Assembly (NCBI RefSeq): GCF_001548275.1
Contig: NZ_AP014945.1
Coordinates: 1,500,001-1,532,000 of the forward strand
From: Caldimicrobium thiodismutans
GTDB lineage: Bacteria; Desulfobacterota; Thermodesulfobacteria; Thermodesulfobacteriales; Thermodesulfobacteriaceae
Length of the DNA: 32,000 nt
Direction of reading: 5' to 3'
Part shown: positions 4,534-29,906 of the stretch, piece by piece
How positions within the stretch are numbered: position 1 is the stretch's first letter
Layout: each line of letters begins with the position of its first letter
Program-made: the position numbers and the translations under genes
The notes under the pieces: generated by a model
The model's database searches: none
What the model saw: the letters and a program-made list of their open reading frames with translations, nothing else
Told to the model about the DNA's origin: nothing

Positions 4534-5305
4534 AAACTTTAAAGAGATTTTCAGGATCAAGACAGGGTCTTTCTGAACAGGTCTTTGGAAAACAGGGTCT
4601 ACAGGATAGGGGAAGAAATATCAGATGTGAGGTCTCTCCAAGGGGTGAAAAGATAACCTCATCAGTTGGTCCATAAAAAAGGAAAGATTTGATCCCCAGA
4701 TAAGAGGCAAGGTGAGAGATTCCACTATCATTCCCTATGAAAAGACCTGCCCTTTTAAGAAAAGAAGCTATTTCTAATATGTTAAAACTTCTGAATAGAT
4801 TTTTCTTTTTGGAAAAAAGCCAGTCCTCAGCTTCTCCTGCAAGGTAAATTACCGTAAACCCGAGATTTACTAAGTATGCCTCAATTTTTTCAAAAAGCTC
4901 TAAGGGAGGATTCTTTTTGGGAGAGCCTGAACCCGGGTGAAGCACGGCTAAATTTTTATCCCCTGGCTCATCCTCAAAAATAGGTAGCTTCCTTGAAAAA
5001 TTAAAAGGAAGGCCAAGGCTCTTAAGATAATAATAAGTAATGGGTATCCTACTTTCTGGAAAGGGATTAAGATTGCCTCTACAGGAGATGAGGATTTTTT
5101 CTTGATACCTGGATAAATCAAGAGAAGACAAAAATTCGGAACTATAGATTTTATCAGCCCATCCACAGAGATAAGCAAGTTCTAAATAGTCTCTATTTCC
5201 CACAAAGTGCACCTCAAAGCCTTTCCTTTTTAGGACTTCAGCTACAGGAAAGGTTAGAAGAGTATCTCCAAGCCCTCCTCGCCTGTAAAGTAAAACCCTG
5301 TTCAT
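4487..5305 (-). CDS. glycosyltransferase family 9 (heptosyltransferase-like), short form
   Basis: N-terminal RRGGLGDTLLTFPV and C-terminal GNDSGISHLASYLG...FYGPT are typical GT9 motifs. 272 aa. Its 3' end overlaps the convergent ldcA-like gene by 47 nt. Confidence 0.75.
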   Translation of the reverse strand: MNRVLLYRRGGLGDTLLTFPVAEVLKRKGFEVHFVGNRDYLELAYLCGWADKIYSSEFLSSLDLSRYQEKILISCRGNLNPFPESRIPITYYYLKSLGLPFNFSRKLPIFEDEPGDKNLAVLHPGSGSPKKNPPLELFEKIEAYLVNLGFTVIYLAGEAEDWLFSKKKNLFRSFNILEIASFLKRAGLFIGNDSGISHLASYLGIKSFLFYGPTDEVIFSPLGETSHLIFLPLSCRPCFPKTCSERPCLDPENLFKVFKKALHQNITLHAYY

Positions 5306-5341
5306 TTTAAAAAAGCTTAACAGCTCCTCCTGTAGCTCCCC

Positions 5342-5652
5342 CTAATACCTCATTTAATTTTCTAAAGGAATTTATTTTACCTTCTCCTCCTTTTTATTGT
5401 CAATTTTTCCCCGAAAATATTCCCTTTTTTCTCTAAATATGCTCTCTCAAGCATTTTTTCTGATATCTCCATATCTTTCTATAAAGCTCCTTACCCACTC
5501 TTTCCTTTGAAATAAGCTTTGCGAAAGAACTAAGCTTGTAAATTTAAGAGGGGCGAAATAGATAGTTTTTTTGTGAAGGTTCAAGAGAGGCGCTGAGATT
5601 TTTTATATGAAGCAACGATAAATTTTCGAATAGATTTTTAATGAGGCCATTC
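5342..5652 (+). mobile_element. R1 MITE-like interspersed repeat, copy A
   Basis: Alignable by eye over nearly its whole length with 11735-12055, 24328-24665 and (inverted) 29657-29906. Termini are CTAATACCTCATTTAA ... TTAATGAGGCCATTC (imperfect 16-bp inverted repeat). No ORF of 60 aa or more. Confidence 0.75.
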
Positions 5653-5657
5653 GGCTC

Positions 5658-5685
5658 TTGTAAAAGACTTTTTCTAAAATATAAT
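5658..5685 (+). promoter_or_regulatory. sigma70-like promoter for the DegT-type aminotransferase gene
   Basis: TTGTAA (5658-5663), 16-nt spacer, TATAAT (5680-5685). The -10 overlaps the first ATG of the track ORF (5684), which argues for the ATG at 5717 as the real start. Confidence 0.4.
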
Positions 5686-11734: not shown

Positions 11735-12055
11735 GTAATGCCTCATTTAATTTTCTAAAGGAAATTATTTTACCTTCTCCTCCTTTATATTTTCATCAAT
11801 TTTTTCCCCGATAATAATTCCCTTTTTTCTATAAATATGCTCTCTCAAACATTTTCTGATATCTCCTTATCTTTCTGCAAAGCTCCTTTACCTTTCCACC
11901 TATTCTTTCCTTAAAATAAGCTTTGCGAAAGAACTAAGCTCATAAATTCAAGAGGGGCGAAATAGATAGTTTTTTCGTGAAGGTTAAATAGAGGAGCTGA
12001 GGTTTTTTATATGAGGCAACGATAAATTTCAAATAGATTTTTAATGAGGCAATTC
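11735..12055 (+). mobile_element. R1 MITE-like interspersed repeat, copy B
   Basis: GTAATGCCTCATTTAA ... TTAATGAGGCAATTC. Flanked by AGGTCT (left) and AGGTTCT (right), an apparent target-site duplication. Confidence 0.8.
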
Positions 12056-12061
12056 AGGTTC

Positions 12062-17786: not shown

Positions 17787-18620
17787 TTATAAGCCTGCTT
17801 CTCTATCAGGGACATCAGTGTAAAAGGTTATCCCAAGACTTTTGCAAAAATTCTTAGCCTCACGATCAATCATAGGAGAAATAATTATCTTTCTTGTGAC
17901 CCTTCTCCCTTCTTTTTTCTCAAAAAACTTTACCTTTCTCTCAAAAAGCAGGACATCAGCAGGACTAACAGAAGATTTAATCTCAGCTACAATAAGCTCA
18001 CCATCTCTAATAATAAGGTCAATTTCAACGGTTTTACCGGGAAAACCATCAAAGACCTCACCTTCTAAATCAGTTGTTTCATAATGTTCTACCTTAACCC
18101 CAAAGGTTTCCTCAAGAAGCCCTTTTACTGCATTGCGAAAGGTTTTTTCTGATTTAATTCCCCATCTTGCCCCGAGGGCACCAATCTGCACATCCTGTCT
18201 CTTTCTTAAGGCAAGGATTTCTTCCATCAGGATTTTATTGCCTTGAGAGAGTTCTTCAAGCTTCTTTGAATGCTCTTTCAAAATCTGAGAATGTTCTTCA
18301 AGCCTTTTTGAATGCTCTTTTAGAATCTGATAATGCTCTTCAAGCCTTTTTGAATGCTCTTTTAGAATCTGAGAATGCTCTTCAAGCCTTTTTGAATGCT
18401 CTTCCCATCTTTTTTCACTCTCAATTCTTAAGATCTTAATCTCCTCTAAGAGGGCTTTGATCTCTTCTTCAGTGGTTCTTTTGTCGGCAAAATTTTCTTT
18501 GAAAAGGCTCGCTACATAGTCCTTAAGAAGGGGATCTTCCTTCAAAAGCTCAGGGAGATCCCGAATTAACATTTCCTTAAAGGCTACTTTGGATATGACA
18601 CTTTTTTTAGCCCTTTGCAT
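17787..18620 (-). CDS. coiled-coil protein with internal 14-aa tandem repeats and a C-terminal PD-(D/E)XK-like nuclease-fold domain (architecture like DUF3782-type proteins of thermophiles)
   Basis: 277 aa. Middle region (HSKRLEEHSQILKE) x about 3.5. C-terminal TVEIDLIIRDGELIVAEIKSS gives D-x12-E-x-K. RBS GGAGG upstream of the ATG. Confidence 0.7.
   Translation of the reverse strand: MQRAKKSVISKVAFKEMLIRDLPELLKEDPLLKDYVASLFKENFADKRTTEEEIKALLEEIKILRIESEKRWEEHSKRLEEHSQILKEHSKRLEEHYQILKEHSKRLEEHSQILKEHSKKLEELSQGNKILMEEILALRKRQDVQIGALGARWGIKSEKTFRNAVKGLLEETFGVKVEHYETTDLEGEVFDGFPGKTVEIDLIIRDGELIVAEIKSSVSPADVLLFERKVKFFEKKEGRRVTRKIIISPMIDREAKNFCKSLGITFYTDVPDREAGL
18254..18403. repeat. 42-bp tandem repeat, about 3.6 copies, inside the CDS
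   Basis: Units at 18254-18295, 18296-18337 and 18338-18379, plus a partial unit from 18380: CTTCAAGCCTTTTTGAATGCTCTTTTAGAATCTGAGAATGCT. Copies 2 and 3 differ at one base. The period is 14 codons. Confidence 0.9.
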
Positions 18621-21328: not shown

Positions 21329-21769
21329 TCACAAAGAAAGTCTCTGAAAAAGTTTCAAAAAAGCCTCTTTTAACTCAGGGTCAGAGAGATTTCTGCACTG
21401 AAGTTTTAATTCTTCCAAGGTCTCCTTAGAAAGAAGAATATGTTTAATTCTTGAGGTCTCATCTTTGGTCTCCCATGAAGGATAAAAGACAAATTTTAGG
21501 GTTTTTACAGGAAAAGATTCTTTTTCAGGATAATAAGTTCTTAAGCGCTCAAGAATTGTTAAGTAATGAGAAGAGAGTTTTTGTAAAATATAATGGTCAG
21601 ATACTCCGATTACAAGCACACCCTCTTCAAAATTAAGAGGTTTTGTATCCTTAGCCTCATTCTCCATGATTTTAGTCCAATTTTCTTTAAGGAACTTGAA
21701 AAGCCTAAGACTTTCCTTTATCCTGGGAGGAAGTTTTAAAGAGTTTGAGATGTTTTTAAGGGATTCCAT
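21329..21769 (-). CDS. DUF721 (DciA-like) domain protein
   Basis: 146 aa. L..NW..I......T.P..FE.GVLVIGV......Q.L pattern typical of DUF721. Overlaps the upstream PMM/PGM gene by 14 nt. Confidence 0.55.
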   Translation of the reverse strand: MESLKNISNSLKLPPRIKESLRLFKFLKENWTKIMENEAKDTKPLNFEEGVLVIGVSDHYILQKLSSHYLTILERLRTYYPEKESFPVKTLKFVFYPSWETKDETSRIKHILLSKETLEELKLQCRNLSDPELKEAFLKLFQRLSL

Positions 21770-24327: not shown

Positions 24328-24665
24328 GTAATGCCTCATTTAGTTTTATAAATGAAATCATTTTTATCCCCTCTTTTTTACTGTCAATTTTTCTTGGGAA
24401 TAATTTACTTTTTTTTCAAAATATGCTCTTTCAAGCATTTTCTGATATCTCCTTATCTTTCTGTAAAGCTCCTTTACTTTTCCCCCCTTTTTCCTTTAAA
24501 ATAAGCTTTGCCAGGGGACTTAAGGTCTACCTTTCGTGAATTTAAGAAGAGTGAGATATACCATTTTTCCGTAAAGTTTTAAGAGAGATGTCCTGAATTG
24601 AATTTGAAAAATTTTTTCTCCGAGGCAACGATAAAATTTCGAATAGATTCTTAATGAGGCAATTC
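24328..24665 (+). mobile_element. R1 MITE-like interspersed repeat, copy C (most divergent)
   Basis: GTAATGCCTCATTTAG ... TTAATGAGGCAATTC. CAGGC is found on both flanks. The central-right segment diverges from copies A, B and D. Confidence 0.75.
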
Positions 24666-24727: not shown

Positions 24728-25372
24728 TTGAAAGAGACATTTCTTGTTCTTATTCAGAAATTTCTTCTTTTTTTTGAAAAGAGCTCATATTTTGGAGTTT
24801 TTTTTCTAATGGCCCTTGAGTCAACTCTTGTTCCTATCCCCAGCGAGATAATTATTCCACCGGCTGCTTATCTTGCCTCTAAAGGAAAAATGAATCTCTT
24901 CGGAGTTATTCTCTCTGGAACTTTGGGAAGTCTTGCAGGAGCCCTTTTGAATTACTCCCTGGCTCTAAAATTTGGAAGACCCGCTTTTTTGAGATTTATT
25001 CGAAGATACGGGAAGTATGTCTTGTTAACTGAGATTTCCTTTATGAAGATGGAGGGTTTTTGGCATAATCATGGACACATTAGTACTTTTGTAGGGAGGC
25101 TTCTTCCCGGGCTTCGGCATGTAATCTCTATTCCTGCAGGTTTTGCTCGAATGGCGCTTGGGATCTTTTGTTTATATACAACAATAGGAGCCCTTTTGTG
25201 GTGCACCTTTTTAGCCATTTGTGGTTATTACTTTGGGAAAAATGAGGCCCTTCTCAAGGAATATCTTCATAAAGGATCATATGGATTGATTTTATTTTGT
25301 ATAATCTTGATAAGTGCATATGTTTGGTTCAAGATAAAAATAAAGAAGGGGCCAAAGGCCCCCAAAAAATAG
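24728..25372 (+). CDS. DedA-family inner membrane protein
   Basis: 214 aa. ESTLVPIPSEIIIPPAAYLA and GRLLPGLRHVISIPAG are canonical DedA motifs. TTG start 7 nt after GGGAGG. Confidence 0.85.
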   Translation: MKETFLVLIQKFLLFFEKSSYFGVFFLMALESTLVPIPSEIIIPPAAYLASKGKMNLFGVILSGTLGSLAGALLNYSLALKFGRPAFLRFIRRYGKYVLLTEISFMKMEGFWHNHGHISTFVGRLLPGLRHVISIPAGFARMALGIFCLYTTIGALLWCTFLAICGYYFGKNEALLKEYLHKGSYGLILFCIILISAYVWFKIKIKKGPKAPKK

Positions 25373-25374
25373 AT

Positions 25375-25764
25375 TTAATTGATTTTAACCAGCCTTTTTT
25401 CGCTAAAGAAAAGGAATTTCTTTTTACCAACTTCTAATTTATCCAGATTTTCTGCAGCATCACTTGGTAAGTACCAGAGACTAACAGTAACCTCTACTTC
25501 TTTGGCCTTAATTTCTCTTACCTTCTTACCATCTTTTTCCACATCTTCATAAGGGAAAGGAAATTCAAAGATCTTTACCTTTTCTTTTTCTGGCTGTAAA
25601 GAGGTATCTACCATATAACCTGTCTTTCTATGAGCACCAAAGGCCATCTTATTGTCCCTGTCAAAGCCTGATGCCATAGGCATGAGAACTTTGAGATCCT
25701 GATAAATGACCTTTCCATCTTTGGTTTTGCCAGTCACCTCAAGGACCAGCTTGTTGGGAGAAGG
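25375..25764 (-). CDS. open frame continuing directly after the in-frame TGA of the pentaheme cytochrome (the track lists 25375..25737 from an internal GTG); probably its C-terminal domain
   Basis: Same frame as 25765..26688 with no stop between the TGA and the track ORF (PSPNKLVLE-VTGKTKDG...). No Shine-Dalgarno-like element before the GTG. No CxxCH. The composition looks like a soluble beta-rich domain. Confidence 0.55.
   Translation of the reverse strand, partial: PSPNKLVLEVTGKTKDGKVIYQDLKVLMPMASGFDRDNKMAFGAHRKTGYMVDTSLQPEKEKVKIFEFPFPYEDVEKDGKKVREIKAKEVEVTVSLWYLPSDAAENLDKLEVGKKKFLFFSEKRLVKIN
25729..25750 (-). promoter_or_regulatory. candidate SECIS-like hairpin 14 nt downstream of the in-frame UGA
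   Basis: mRNA GCUGGUC-CUUGAGGU-GACUGGC: 7-bp stem (two G-U pairs) and an 8-nt loop containing GGU. The position fits bacterial SECIS geometry, but the stem is weak. Confidence 0.3.
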
Positions 25765-26688
25765 TCAGCCATCTGGTATACGGTGCCCGGCCTTATTATA
25801 CATTTTAACAATTACTCTAACAGTTGGTCTCAAATCACCAGGTTTGTGAAGATAATAGTATCCCTCAGCTTCAACGGAATAATTAAGGGCTTTATTTACC
25901 ATTCTTTCGTCCCGGTAAGCAGGAATCTTGTGTCCGAAATTATCCTCTCTCATATGGCAGTCCTGACAAACTTTGGTGCCTCCACTTGGGATATAAGCAT
26001 GCAGATAGCTTCCATAGGCTGTAGCACATTGAGAGGGTTCTGGAAATTCAAAATTTGGCCCAGTTCCATGGCACTGACCACAGAAAACTGCTTGTCCCAT
26101 TATAGGAGATTTCTTTAAGGTTTTTAACTTTGTATCAAAGTGAGAACCTTCCTTTTTTCCGTAAATGGCATTTCTGTCAATATCACCATCCAGCCATTTA
26201 TGAACTATGGCCTTTTCCTGATGGCAGATAATACAGTTGATGTTTACCTGCTCAACCTTTTTCCAGGCTGCTTCGTCTCCCCCTGCAGCTTTAATCAGCA
26301 ACTCTGCCAGCTCTCTTGCACCAGAGGGCTCAAGATATTGAACCTGAGGGGCATGACACTTCATACAAAACATAAGCTTGTCTGCGGTAACATCTGCAAT
26401 GGATTTAACCCCTGAGTGCTTAAACTCCTTCCAGAGAGACTCAACTGTCCCTGCCATACTTCCAAGGGTTCTCGGAGTCCCTATAAGGGATCTTGCATGC
26501 AGACTCTCTGACCACTCTTTAAATTCCTTCTGATGGCACTCCTTACAGGAGCTTACATCAAACATCTTGATGAGCTCATCAACACTTTTGGCCTTCTTTA
26601 CCTCTGCCTTTGCTCCACCTGGAGCAAATAACAACAGGCCCAATAATAACAATCCCCAAAAATAAAAGAAAAATCGCTTAAACACCAT
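25765..26688 (-). CDS. secreted pentaheme c-type cytochrome (ends at an in-frame TGA)
   Basis: Signal peptide MVFKRFFFYFWGLLLLGLLLFAPGGAKA. Five CxxCH motifs: CKECH, CMKCH, CIICH, CGQCH, CQDCH. RBS GGAGGTGG upstream. Confidence 0.85.
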   Translation of the reverse strand: MVFKRFFFYFWGLLLLGLLLFAPGGAKAEVKKAKSVDELIKMFDVSSCKECHQKEFKEWSESLHARSLIGTPRTLGSMAGTVESLWKEFKHSGVKSIADVTADKLMFCMKCHAPQVQYLEPSGARELAELLIKAAGGDEAAWKKVEQVNINCIICHQEKAIVHKWLDGDIDRNAIYGKKEGSHFDTKLKTLKKSPIMGQAVFCGQCHGTGPNFEFPEPSQCATAYGSYLHAYIPSGGTKVCQDCHMREDNFGHKIPAYRDERMVNKALNYSVEAEGYYYLHKPGDLRPTVRVIVKMYNKAGHRIPDG

Positions 26689-26735
26689 AACCCACCTCCT
26701 TTTAATGTTTAGTTTATTATTAACTTTTTAAATAA

Positions 26736-26764
26736 ATTATGAACTGTAAAATTAAACATGTCAA
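26736..26764 (-). promoter_or_regulatory. sigma70-like promoter for the pentaheme cytochrome gene
   Basis: On the minus strand: TTGACA (26764-26759), 17-nt spacer, CATAAT (26741-26736). Confidence 0.45.
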
Positions 26765-26818: not shown

Positions 26819-27214
26819 TTAAGAAATTTTCTGAGAAAGCAAGGCTTTTTTTAGGGTGTCAACATTGAGAATGGGACAGCTCAGTTTGTTTTCAGGAATA
26901 CCTGATTCAAGTTCTTCCAAAAGGAAATCCCTTTCTAATTTTAAAATTTCATCTATGGTTTTGCCTTTAAGCTTTTCGGTGAGTTTGCTTAAGAAGGCAA
27001 TGGCTGCTACACAGCCTTGAACTTTGAACTTGGCATCTTTGATGATGTTTCCTTCCCTTTTGAGATAGAGCCTTAAAAGACAGGGAGAAGGAGGAGAATC
27101 CGCTGTGCAGACAGGATTCTCCTCGGTAATTATGATATCGGCATCAGGAATCTCTCCGATATTTTTGGGATTTAAAAACTCCTGCAGGACCTTTTTGCCA
27201 TAATATTTAGCCAT
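26819..27214 (-). CDS. divergent IscU/NifU-N-like scaffold paralog
   Basis: The N-terminus parallels the upstream IscU (KKVLQEFLNPKNIGEIPDAD) and QGCVAAIA is retained. The first Cys region reads PVCTADSPPSPC and the HC motif reads SC. The ATG at 27214 overlaps the iscU stop (ATGGCTAA). The track start at 27238 is a TTG. Confidence 0.7.
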   Translation of the reverse strand: MAKYYGKKVLQEFLNPKNIGEIPDADIIITEENPVCTADSPPSPCLLRLYLKREGNIIKDAKFKVQGCVAAIAFLSKLTEKLKGKTIDEILKLERDFLLEELESGIPENKLSCPILNVDTLKKALLSQKIS

Positions 27215-27578
27215 TTTGTTTAGCGCGATAGTCTTCAATAGCTTTTTTCAAGGCATCAAGGCCAAGAACTGAGCAATGCACCTTTTGGGGAGGGAGCCCT
27301 CCAAGTTCAGATACGATTTTCTCTTTGGTAAGTTTTAAGGCCTCATCTAAGGGTTTTCCCTTAACCATTTCGGTTAGGATACTTGAGACTGCAATAGCAG
27401 CTGCACATCCAAAGGTCTTAAACTTAATGTCTTCAATGCGCTCATTTTTGACCTTAATATAAAGATACATCATATCCCCGCAAACAGGATTCCCTTCAAT
27501 ACCAACTCCATCGGCATCAGGGATCTCTCCTACATTTCTGGGATTCATGAAATGATCTAAAACCTTTTCGCTATACAT
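27207..27578 (-). CDS. iscU: Fe-S cluster assembly scaffold protein IscU/NifU (N-domain type)
   Basis: YSEKVLDHFMNPRNVG, NPVCGD, GCAAAIA and KVHCS supply the three cluster cysteines. AGGAGGG lies 6 nt before the ATG at 27578. Confidence 0.9.
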   Translation of the reverse strand: MYSEKVLDHFMNPRNVGEIPDADGVGIEGNPVCGDMMYLYIKVKNERIEDIKFKTFGCAAAIAVSSILTEMVKGKPLDEALKLTKEKIVSELGGLPPQKVHCSVLGLDALKKAIEDYRAKQNG

Positions 27579-27602
27579 GGCAAGCCCTCCTTTTTTCAAA
27601 TT

Positions 27603-29649: not shown

Positions 29650-29656
29650 AGGTCTC

Positions 29657-29906
29657 GAATTGCCTCATTAAAAATCTATTCGAAATTTTATCGTTGCCTC
29701 ATATAAAAAATCTCAGCTCCTCTCTTGAACCTTCACGAAAAAACTATCTATTTCGCCCCTCTTAAATTTACAAGCTTAGTTCTTTAGCAAAGCTTATTTC
29801 AAAGGAAAGAGTGGTTGGGAAGGTAAAGGAGCTTTGCAGAAAGATAAGGAGATATCAGAAAATGCATGAGAGAGCATATTTAGAGAAAAAGGTAACTATT
29901 TTCGGG
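29657..29906 (-). mobile_element. R1 MITE-like repeat, copy D, inverted and truncated at its left end by an R2 copy
   Basis: Begins GAATTGCCTCATTAAAAATC (reverse complement of the R1 right end). Collinear with the other copies until ...TATTTTCGGG, where TGTATGCGTC (R2 left terminus) starts at 29907. Confidence 0.8.

Follow-up and report, generated by a model that had tools for sequence, protein, structure and literature searches.

Does the in-frame TGA at 25767-25765 end one gene, disrupt one, or encode selenocysteine (Sec)? The question arises in a 32,000-nucleotide stretch of Caldimicrobium thiodismutans DNA (contig NZ_AP014945.1, positions 1,500,001 to 1,532,000), referred to here as the window. 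On its minus strand, a frame running from 26688 to 25375 comprises 437 sense codons and a terminal TAA (25377-25375), and this TGA is its sole interruption. An earlier note, made from the letters alone, had proposed that the TGA joins a pentaheme cytochrome to the downstream frame as a candidate Sec site, and each of the elements it described is present where it placed them. We are highly confident that 26688-25375 is one monocistronic gene, mccSep (also extKL), encoding a secreted pentaheme c-type cytochrome selenoprotein of the MccSep/ExtKL family.

The first open reading frame (ORF) starts at an ATG (26688) and spans 307 codons, with a hydrophobic, signal-like N-terminus and the final residues ...KAGHRIPDG directly before the TGA. 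All 129 codons between the TGA and the TAA are open, and a second, GTG-initiated ORF (25737-25375) lies within them in the same frame; the interval from TGA to GTG consists of nine open codons, encoding PSPNKLVLE. The five heme motifs read earlier (CKECH, CMKCH, CIICH, CGQCH, and CQDCH) were all located on the minus strand. Read conventionally, the locus would hold two genes, a 307-residue pentaheme cytochrome that ends at the TGA and an independent 120-residue protein that begins at GTG 25737. Gene calls by JGI and NCBI on sister contigs do split the locus in this manner, into 307 residues plus either 120 or 102. However, the split is an artefact of reading TGA as a stop, and we consider the two-gene arrangement very improbable. 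An AGGAGG (26700-26695) precedes the ATG only, and, as the earlier note had pointed out, nothing comparable to this ribosome-binding site (RBS) stands before the GTG. A sequence scan of the locus found no terminator-like, promoter-like, or RBS-like site between the two ORF halves.

For profile searches, we used the 437-residue fused protein with Cys in place of the TGA. The NCBIfam model NF040886, "multiheme c-type cytochrome (seleno)protein ExtKL", matched with 533.3 bits against a curated cut-off of 250, and the match runs across the TGA, placing query residues 9-426 on profile positions 5-420 of 423. Pfam returned generic multiheme domains only. The best matches in the PDB were 9WT8 and 9WT9 (E about 1e-108), both Geobacter sulfurreducens MccSep, with query residues 29-411 aligned to chain residues 39-428 at 44.5% identity over 382 positions. 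MccSep is also represented in the PDB by 9WTA-C. In this alignment, Sec falls on Sec: the TGA, residue 308, corresponds to position 325 of the Geobacter enzyme, and residues 309-411 beyond it align to residues 326-428 of the 9WT9 chain. The earlier note had named Geobacter ExtKL as a possible precedent, leaving its relatedness undecided; the full-length profile match and the alignment across the TGA to MccSep (GSU2937-2936) bear out that relationship.

MccSep was described by Mihara et al. (Sci Adv 2026, PMC13510729), who found that gsu2937-gsu2936, equivalent to extKL, is a single gene whose in-frame UGA is read through. Its product is a single periplasmic protein of 49 kDa containing approximately 1 Se and 5 Fe per subunit, and mass spectrometry detected the Sec peptide VEMTNHAGHSIPDGUPTPNR (PMC13510729). 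This direct demonstration in Geobacter speaks against two separate genes. The enzyme is a homotetramer with a five-heme N-terminal cap and an immunoglobulin (Ig)-like C-terminal stem; heme 2 is ligated by H122 and C239, with U325 alongside (PMC13510729). U325, C239, R83, and K372 are required for polysulfide reduction, for the less strong reduction of selenite, and for growth on elemental sulfur; polysulfide is the preferred substrate (PMC13510729).

The residues of the window protein equivalent to those of the Geobacter active site are R73 (R83), H112 (H122), C221 (C239), U308 (U325), and K355 (K372). In an alignment of 85 family sequences, C221, K355, and the D-G-U-P loop are invariant, while H112 is His in 84 sequences and R73 is Arg in 82. 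The heme-binding residues are C48/C51/H52, C108/C111/H112, C152/C155/H156, C203/C206/H207, and C241/C244/H245; 14 of these 15 are invariant across the same sequences, the exception being H112 (84/85). The catalytic site would draw on both halves of the frame, with C221 before the TGA and K355 after it, which is hard to reconcile with two independent proteins. The features that mark the family at the sequence level are all found in the window protein, namely a full-length hidden Markov model (HMM) match, five CxxCH motifs, D-G-[U/C]-P, equivalents of C239, R83, and K372, and a fused C-terminal domain. The protein is thus very probably a Sec-containing MccSep orthologue.

A protein database search with the window protein recovered 813 homologues. 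Nearly all are stored as proteins of about 300 residues ending in ...AGH-x-x-PDG, an observation that could be taken to favor two genes but that we attribute to gene callers stopping at the conserved TGA. We then scanned one genome per species, which yielded 350 relatives, and analyzed the best 80 loci, comprising 83 gene copies. This column is TGA in all 83 copies; next come P-[ST]-P-N-[RK]-x-V-L-[DE]-V-T and an open frame of 112-137 codons, so the arrangement in the window is more than chance. Nowhere is the region better conserved than in the nine codons between TGA and GTG (P-[ST]-P-N-[RK]-x-V-L), whereas the GTG is not conserved as a start. P0018 (TGC) and P0035 (TGT), both of the Cys type, each form one continuous polypeptide reading ...PDG-C-P[ST]..., again at odds with independent genes. 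The TGA column thus aligns to Cys in these two relatives, and orthologues do not separate into two proteins or terminate at this point, the downstream frame being kept in all 83 copies. The closest protein relatives come from uncultured Caldimicrobium metagenome-assembled genomes (MAGs; 79-90% identity), followed by Thermodesulfobacteriaceae (62%); remoter ones come from Desulfobulbales-type and Nitrospirota MAGs.

Selection on the downstream frame was estimated from nonsynonymous (dN) and synonymous (dS) divergence. Downstream of the TGA, comparison with the closest GTDB relative (L002) gives a dN of 0.043 and a dS of 0.93. Comparison with the sister strain L086 gives 0.051 and 0.52 for codons 309-437 and 0.060 and 0.45 for codons 140-307. 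Purifying selection is equal on both sides of the TGA, with dN/dS about 0.1 (downstream about 0.05-0.10), and several independent Caldimicrobium assemblies keep both the TGA and the strongly constrained frame that follows. These values bear on another explanation, in which the gene should carry TGC or TGT (Cys) and shows TGA only through a nonsense mutation or a base-calling error, making the locus a pseudogene or an assembly error. TGA is one base away from either Cys codon, and Cys-type homologues exist. Yet the same TGA occurs in two near-identical independent assemblies (L085 and L086) and in every one of the 83 copies (80 genomes), and the downstream dN/dS is not what is expected of a dead 3' end. 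We assign this explanation a negligible probability.

The sequence after the UGA also carries a candidate signal for its decoding. A hairpin, GCUGGUC/CUUGAGGU/GACUGGC, begins 14 nt past the UGA at 25750-25729, with the position and sequence given in the earlier note. Two further pairs, C25-G31 and U26-G30, can lengthen its 7-bp stem; they close a UGA triloop and leave U32 bulged. The apical loop begins 23-24 nt after the UGA. Under the bSECISearch criteria, the apical loop of a bacterial selenocysteine insertion sequence (SECIS) lies 16-37 nt downstream of the UGA and has a G at one of its first two positions. The hairpin agrees with the downstream stem-loop expected for SelB/SECIS-dependent UGA decoding.

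Codon usage over the hairpin is unusually constrained. Codons +6, +7, +8, +10, and +11 have four-fold degenerate third bases whose entropy across 79 sequences is 0-0.47 bits, compared to a mean of 1.79 bits at the other 77 four-fold sites of the gene, none of which is at or below 0.6. The frozen sites are nt 21, 24, 27, 33, and 36; they make up two stem pairs, G21-C36 and C24-G33, and one loop base, G27. Synonymous sites frozen at the hairpin point to an RNA-level constraint where a bacterial SECIS would be expected. Pairing was examined in an ungapped alignment of 63 columns and 68 sequences, in which 81.7% of cells retain the proposed pairs. Sliding the 3' partners by 1-3 columns lowers this share to 19-51%, and the covariation score of the proposed pairs exceeds that of all 500 shuffles. 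Compensatory changes appear at pair 19-38 (G-C in 19 sequences, C-G in 10) and at pair 6-51 of an optional lower stem (A-U in 16, G-C in 12). The 45 nt after the TGA are identical in two alleles that are otherwise about 11% divergent over the surrounding 900 nt. In the Cys-type relatives (n = 2 only), the hairpin is lost in L083 (TGT) and kept in modified form in L082 (TGC). On this evidence, the hairpin at 25750-25729 is a probable SECIS element.

Several observations weigh against the assignment of a functional selenoprotein gene with the role known from Geobacter. The 60-nt fold (-15.2 kcal/mol) shows no gain in stability over shuffled sequences (z = -0.51), and the 30-nt hairpin, at -9.1 kcal/mol at 37 °C, has a predicted free energy of about 0 at 70-75 °C, in keeping with the earlier remark that the stem is short for a thermophile. 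The window copy has the minority bases U27 and U36, with G.U for G-C, which weaken the stem. RNAalifold on the 68 sequences returned only 4 pairs at -0.63 kcal/mol and a covariation term close to nil. Because the core stem hardly varies, it offers little true covariation, and RNAalifold was uninformative. An Rfam search of 25650-25800 with E up to 10 gave chance-level microRNA and small-RNA matches only, and no SECIS family. We found none of selA, selB, selD, or tRNA-Sec in the 32-kb window or in about 9 kb of extra flank from sister contigs. Neighborhood clustering, which involved no search by name, did not place any of the Geobacter cluster partners next to the gene, these being extH (a rhodanese-like lipoprotein cytochrome), the porin-like extI, and extJ. 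Finally, the substrate and role we propose below would be transferred from a 44.5%-identical enzyme of a different clade (PTPNR, as opposed to PSPNK in the window).

ARAGORN detected no tRNA of any kind in the window, and its run on 860 kb of related loci gave no tRNA-Sec. Among these loci, SelB was found only beside the Cys-type homologue (L083/L084), and a tblastn search with the SelB of L083 against the window and the related loci matched only itself. In L083 (451-9356) and L084 (257-3803), the Cys-type (TGT) MccSep homologue lies directly downstream of selB, with YedE-like Sulf_transp genes, tusA, and a Se_S_carrier-domain gene farther upstream; a Cys version beside the gene for the Sec elongation factor is an odd pairing. 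A literature search on Caldimicrobium and selenocysteine found nothing relevant. Across the window, the mccSep gene is the only convincing candidate for in-frame TGA read-through. The RuvB pair at 21331, also considered as a candidate, looks like two adjacent genes. We infer that Sec is actually inserted at this codon in the organism. An indirect argument comes from the independent Caldimicrobium assemblies that keep the TGA and its constrained downstream frame, two of these MAGs in two paralogues. Coordinates of the features of the locus are collected in Table 1.

Table 1. Features of the mccSep/extKL locus, in window coordinates
Feature	Position	Strand	Basis or remark
Promoter-like site, TTGACA-17 nt-CATAAT	26736..26764	-	11/12 consensus matches; upstream of gene; consensus match alone
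RBS AGGAGG	26695..26700	-	6 nt ahead of ATG; read from sequence
One mccSep/extKL coding sequence of 437 codons, one of them UGA (Sec), and the TAA stop	25375..26688	-	NF040886 and PDB 9WT8 matches span TGA
Predicted Sec-pathway (secretory) signal peptide, residues 1-28, cleavage after AKA	26605..26688	-	inferred from sequence and from Geobacter MccSep, which is periplasmic and N-terminally processed
Heme 1 motif CKECH, residues 48-52	26533..26547	-	invariant 85/85
R73, equivalent to substrate-binding R83 of Geobacter MccSep	26470..26472	-	alignment; R in 82/85
Heme 2 motif CMKCH, residues 108-112	26353..26367	-	H112 equivalent to H122, proximal ligand of active-site heme; H in 84/85
Heme 3 motif CIICH, residues 152-156	26221..26235	-	sequence and family alignment
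Heme 4 motif CGQCH, residues 203-207	26068..26082	-	sequence and family alignment
C221, equivalent to C239, distal Cys ligand of active-site heme 2	26026..26028	-	alignment only; invariant 85/85
Heme 5 motif CQDCH, residues 241-245	25954..25968	-	sequence and family alignment
UGA, Sec codon, U308 equivalent to catalytic U325; loop GH-x-x-P-D-G-U-P	25765..25767	-	TGA in 83/83 copies
K355, equivalent to catalytic K372	25624..25626	-	alignment; invariant 85/85
C-terminal domain, residues 309-437	25378..25764	-	by homology, Ig-like beta-sandwich "stem" of MccSep (formerly separate GSU2936/ExtL)
Probable SECIS hairpin	25729..25750	-	nt 18-39 from U of UGA; four-fold synonymous sites inside nearly invariant family-wide
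Intrinsic terminator GGGGGCC-TTT-GGCCCC (25363-25347) and T-rich tail	25337..25363	-	sole terminator-like site of the unit; after second ORF

Upstream of mccSep lie nifU', nifU, nifS, tusA, and an AhbA-like gene, and downstream lies a convergent dedA/uptA-like gene. Two Caldimicrobium loci, L003 and L004, share the arrangement tusA-nifS-nifU-nifU'-mccSep-dedA/uptA-like. When about 2650 ORFs surrounding the 80 loci were clustered, no neighbor or operon partner proved to be conserved across the MccSep family. Window ORFs that otherwise match NCBIfam are housekeeping genes (serS, nrdG, panB, ruvB, pgm, DAHP synthase, lysA, queA, gatA, fabZ, lpxA, etc.), as are those found on sister contigs by extending rightward through LpxA. 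No Rfam family matched anywhere in the window at gathering thresholds. Directly upstream of mccSep, two tandem NifU/IscU-like genes (26819-27238 and 27207-27599) overlap by 32 nt; the second copy (139 aa), which adjoins mccSep, is divergent, scoring 92 bits against a TIGR03419 cut-off of 188.

The gene itself has diverged between close strains. The window is 99.2-99.8% identical to the JGI metagenome contig Ga0401068_000567, so that it derives from a sister strain and not from that contig, and, outside mccSep, at least 98% identical to the NCBI contig JAEDZT010002866.1. Within the gene, window positions 25371-26270, covering its 3' two-thirds, are about 11% divergent from this NCBI contig (L086, positions 4771-5670), with 103 mismatches in 900 nt. 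The tract has sharp boundaries, extending from the stop codon to mid-gene, and contains 28 amino acid changes (dN/dS about 0.1); both alleles retain the TGA and the identical 45 nt that follow it. From the sequence pattern, this looks like allele replacement by recombination inside the selenoprotein gene.

Caldimicrobium MAGs carry two MccSep paralogues, both with TGA: CAYTDX01 (L002 and L057) and JBKBRL01 (L003 and L062), and also L071 and L075. One paralogue is of the PSPNK type, as in the window. The other, of a PTPNR type, shares about 44% identity with it, and its Sec motif (U-PTPNR) is like that of the Geobacter enzyme. In the Nitrospirota MAG L015, two MccSep genes with TGA, one PSPNR and one PTPNR, lie about 1.9 kb apart on the same strand (6895 and 8802).

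A mechanism may be proposed for the window protein. SelB with Sec-tRNA(Sec) would read the UGA at 25767-25765 as Sec, guided by the downstream mRNA hairpin, to give a 437-residue precursor. Following export and heme attachment, the N-terminal helical domain would hold the five hemes. By analogy with the Geobacter enzyme, the selenolate of U308 would attack a polysulfide chain or selenite, and C221, the Cys that ligates the heme, would take over the adduct in the form of a Se-S(n)-S intermediate; electrons passing via hemes 1 to 5 would then cleave the adduct reductively, releasing sulfide. In the thermophilic host, the enzyme could reduce polysulfide in the periplasm as part of sulfur respiration or of sulfur disproportionation. 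Judged by the Geobacter homologue, polysulfide is likely the physiological substrate. The earlier note had suggested redox chemistry on a sulfur or selenium compound rather than simple electron transfer, which agrees with the reduction of polysulfide (and selenite) by the homologue.

Alternatively, the protein could be a genuine Sec-containing MccSep homologue with another substrate or direction, for example using selenite or a different chalcogen, or working in the disproportionation or oxidation of sulfur instead of respiratory polysulfide reduction. Caldimicrobium is generally known as a sulfur-disproportionating genus. The window copy belongs to the PSPNK clade, with a second, PTPNR-type paralogue present in Caldimicrobium MAGs, and its local context is tusA-nifS-nifU-nifU' instead of extHIJ. 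The Geobacter enzyme, moreover, reduces selenite as well as polysulfide (PMC13510729). Nevertheless, all reported catalytic residues are conserved in the window protein, polysulfide is preferred by the only characterized member (PMC13510729), and the sequence hints at no alternative. A different substrate or direction thus appears unlikely, and we favor polysulfide reduction. A more specific and still more doubtful suggestion is that PSPNK-clade MccSep provides the periplasmic polysulfide-converting step of elemental-sulfur disproportionation, and not of classical respiration, with reductive and sulfur-transfer roles split between the paralogues. The solitary gene syntenic with tusA-nifS-nifU, the second PTPNR-type paralogue, and the sharply bounded allele replacement would fit this suggestion. 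That pathway is still poorly defined biochemically.

Other parts of the window contain further features of their own. A dispersed intergenic repeat of about 300 nt occurs at 5343-5653, 11736-12056, and 24329-24665 in plus orientation and, inverted and 5'-truncated, at 29656-29895; similarity among the copies is 79-96%. The repeat ends in what appear to be terminal inverted repeats (AATGCCTCATTTAA ... TTAATGAGGCAATT), resembling a miniature inverted-repeat transposable element, and Rfam contains no match to it. A 5-kb segment with dedA, mccSep, nifU', nifU, nifS, tusA, and the AhbA-like gene lies between two oppositely oriented copies. At 18244-18424, within a minus-strand ORF (17787-18620) that matches no family, there is a tandem repeat with a 21-nt period (the units alternate, making it effectively 42 nt) in at least 6 copies, which would encode a heptad-like repeat in a 277-aa protein. 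A 432-aa ORF on the plus strand (803-2101) has no NCBIfam match at E up to 1e-8, and its exact product has no record in the contig index.

The main value of these results lies in annotation. Standard gene callers yield a "cytochrome c" and a "hypothetical protein" at this locus, hiding a selenoenzyme tied to sulfur respiration; a corrected annotation would add a periplasmic polysulfide reductase to the metabolic picture of this hot-spring organism and would imply that it uses selenium. The family, its Sec site, structure, and activity are already known from work published in 2026, and an NCBIfam equivalog model names such genes, so no new question is opened. The MccSep paper counts 637 homologues (PMC13510729), and a 2026 review lists ExtKL among the known prokaryotic selenoprotein families (PMC13188914). 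Residual interest attaches to the thermophilic, probably sulfur-disproportionating host, to the solitary position of the gene by sulfur-trafficking genes, and to the recombination tract within it.

Judged by its sequence, the gene is a routine member of a known, curated, and structurally and biochemically characterized family. Geobacter MccSep has the same domain order, consisting of a signal peptide, five CxxCH motifs, Sec in a D-G-U-P loop, and a C-terminal Ig-like domain; its UGA is likewise followed by a hairpin, and gene callers likewise mis-split it into two ORFs. The two differ in clade, U-PSPNK in the window and U-PTPNR in Geobacter, and in the thermophilic host of the window copy. The window gene is solitary, with its own promoter-like site and terminator near tusA-nifS-nifU, whereas the Geobacter gene lies inside the extHIJKL cluster. 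Biochemistry exists for the Geobacter enzyme, while the window copy is known from sequence.

Among more distant systems, TsdA and SoxAX likewise use a Cys distal ligand on a c-type heme as a reactive center for S-S chemistry, and the reaction of MccSep was proposed by its authors to resemble the reverse of that of TsdA (PMC13510729). Unlike MccSep, however, TsdA and SoxAX have neither selenocysteine nor an Ig-like domain, and neither appeared as a significant match among the NCBIfam, Pfam, or three PDB sequence matches of the fused protein. The five hemes of the MccSep core are arranged in a Y shape (PMC13510729), an arrangement shared with NrfB/NrfA, MccA, and OTR. In those proteins the substrate binds at an open heme site, whereas in MccSep a Cys fills that site and Sec does the chemistry; HMM matches of the window protein to NrfB and to decaheme DmsE-family models are weak (14-22 bits against cut-offs of 166-192). 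PsrABC and Sre carry out the same reaction as that proposed for MccSep, respiratory polysulfide reduction, but they are unrelated proteins with different cofactors, a molybdenum-bis(pyranopterin guanine dinucleotide) (Mo-bisPGD), iron-sulfur (FeS) clusters, and a membrane anchor, so that the likeness is purely functional.

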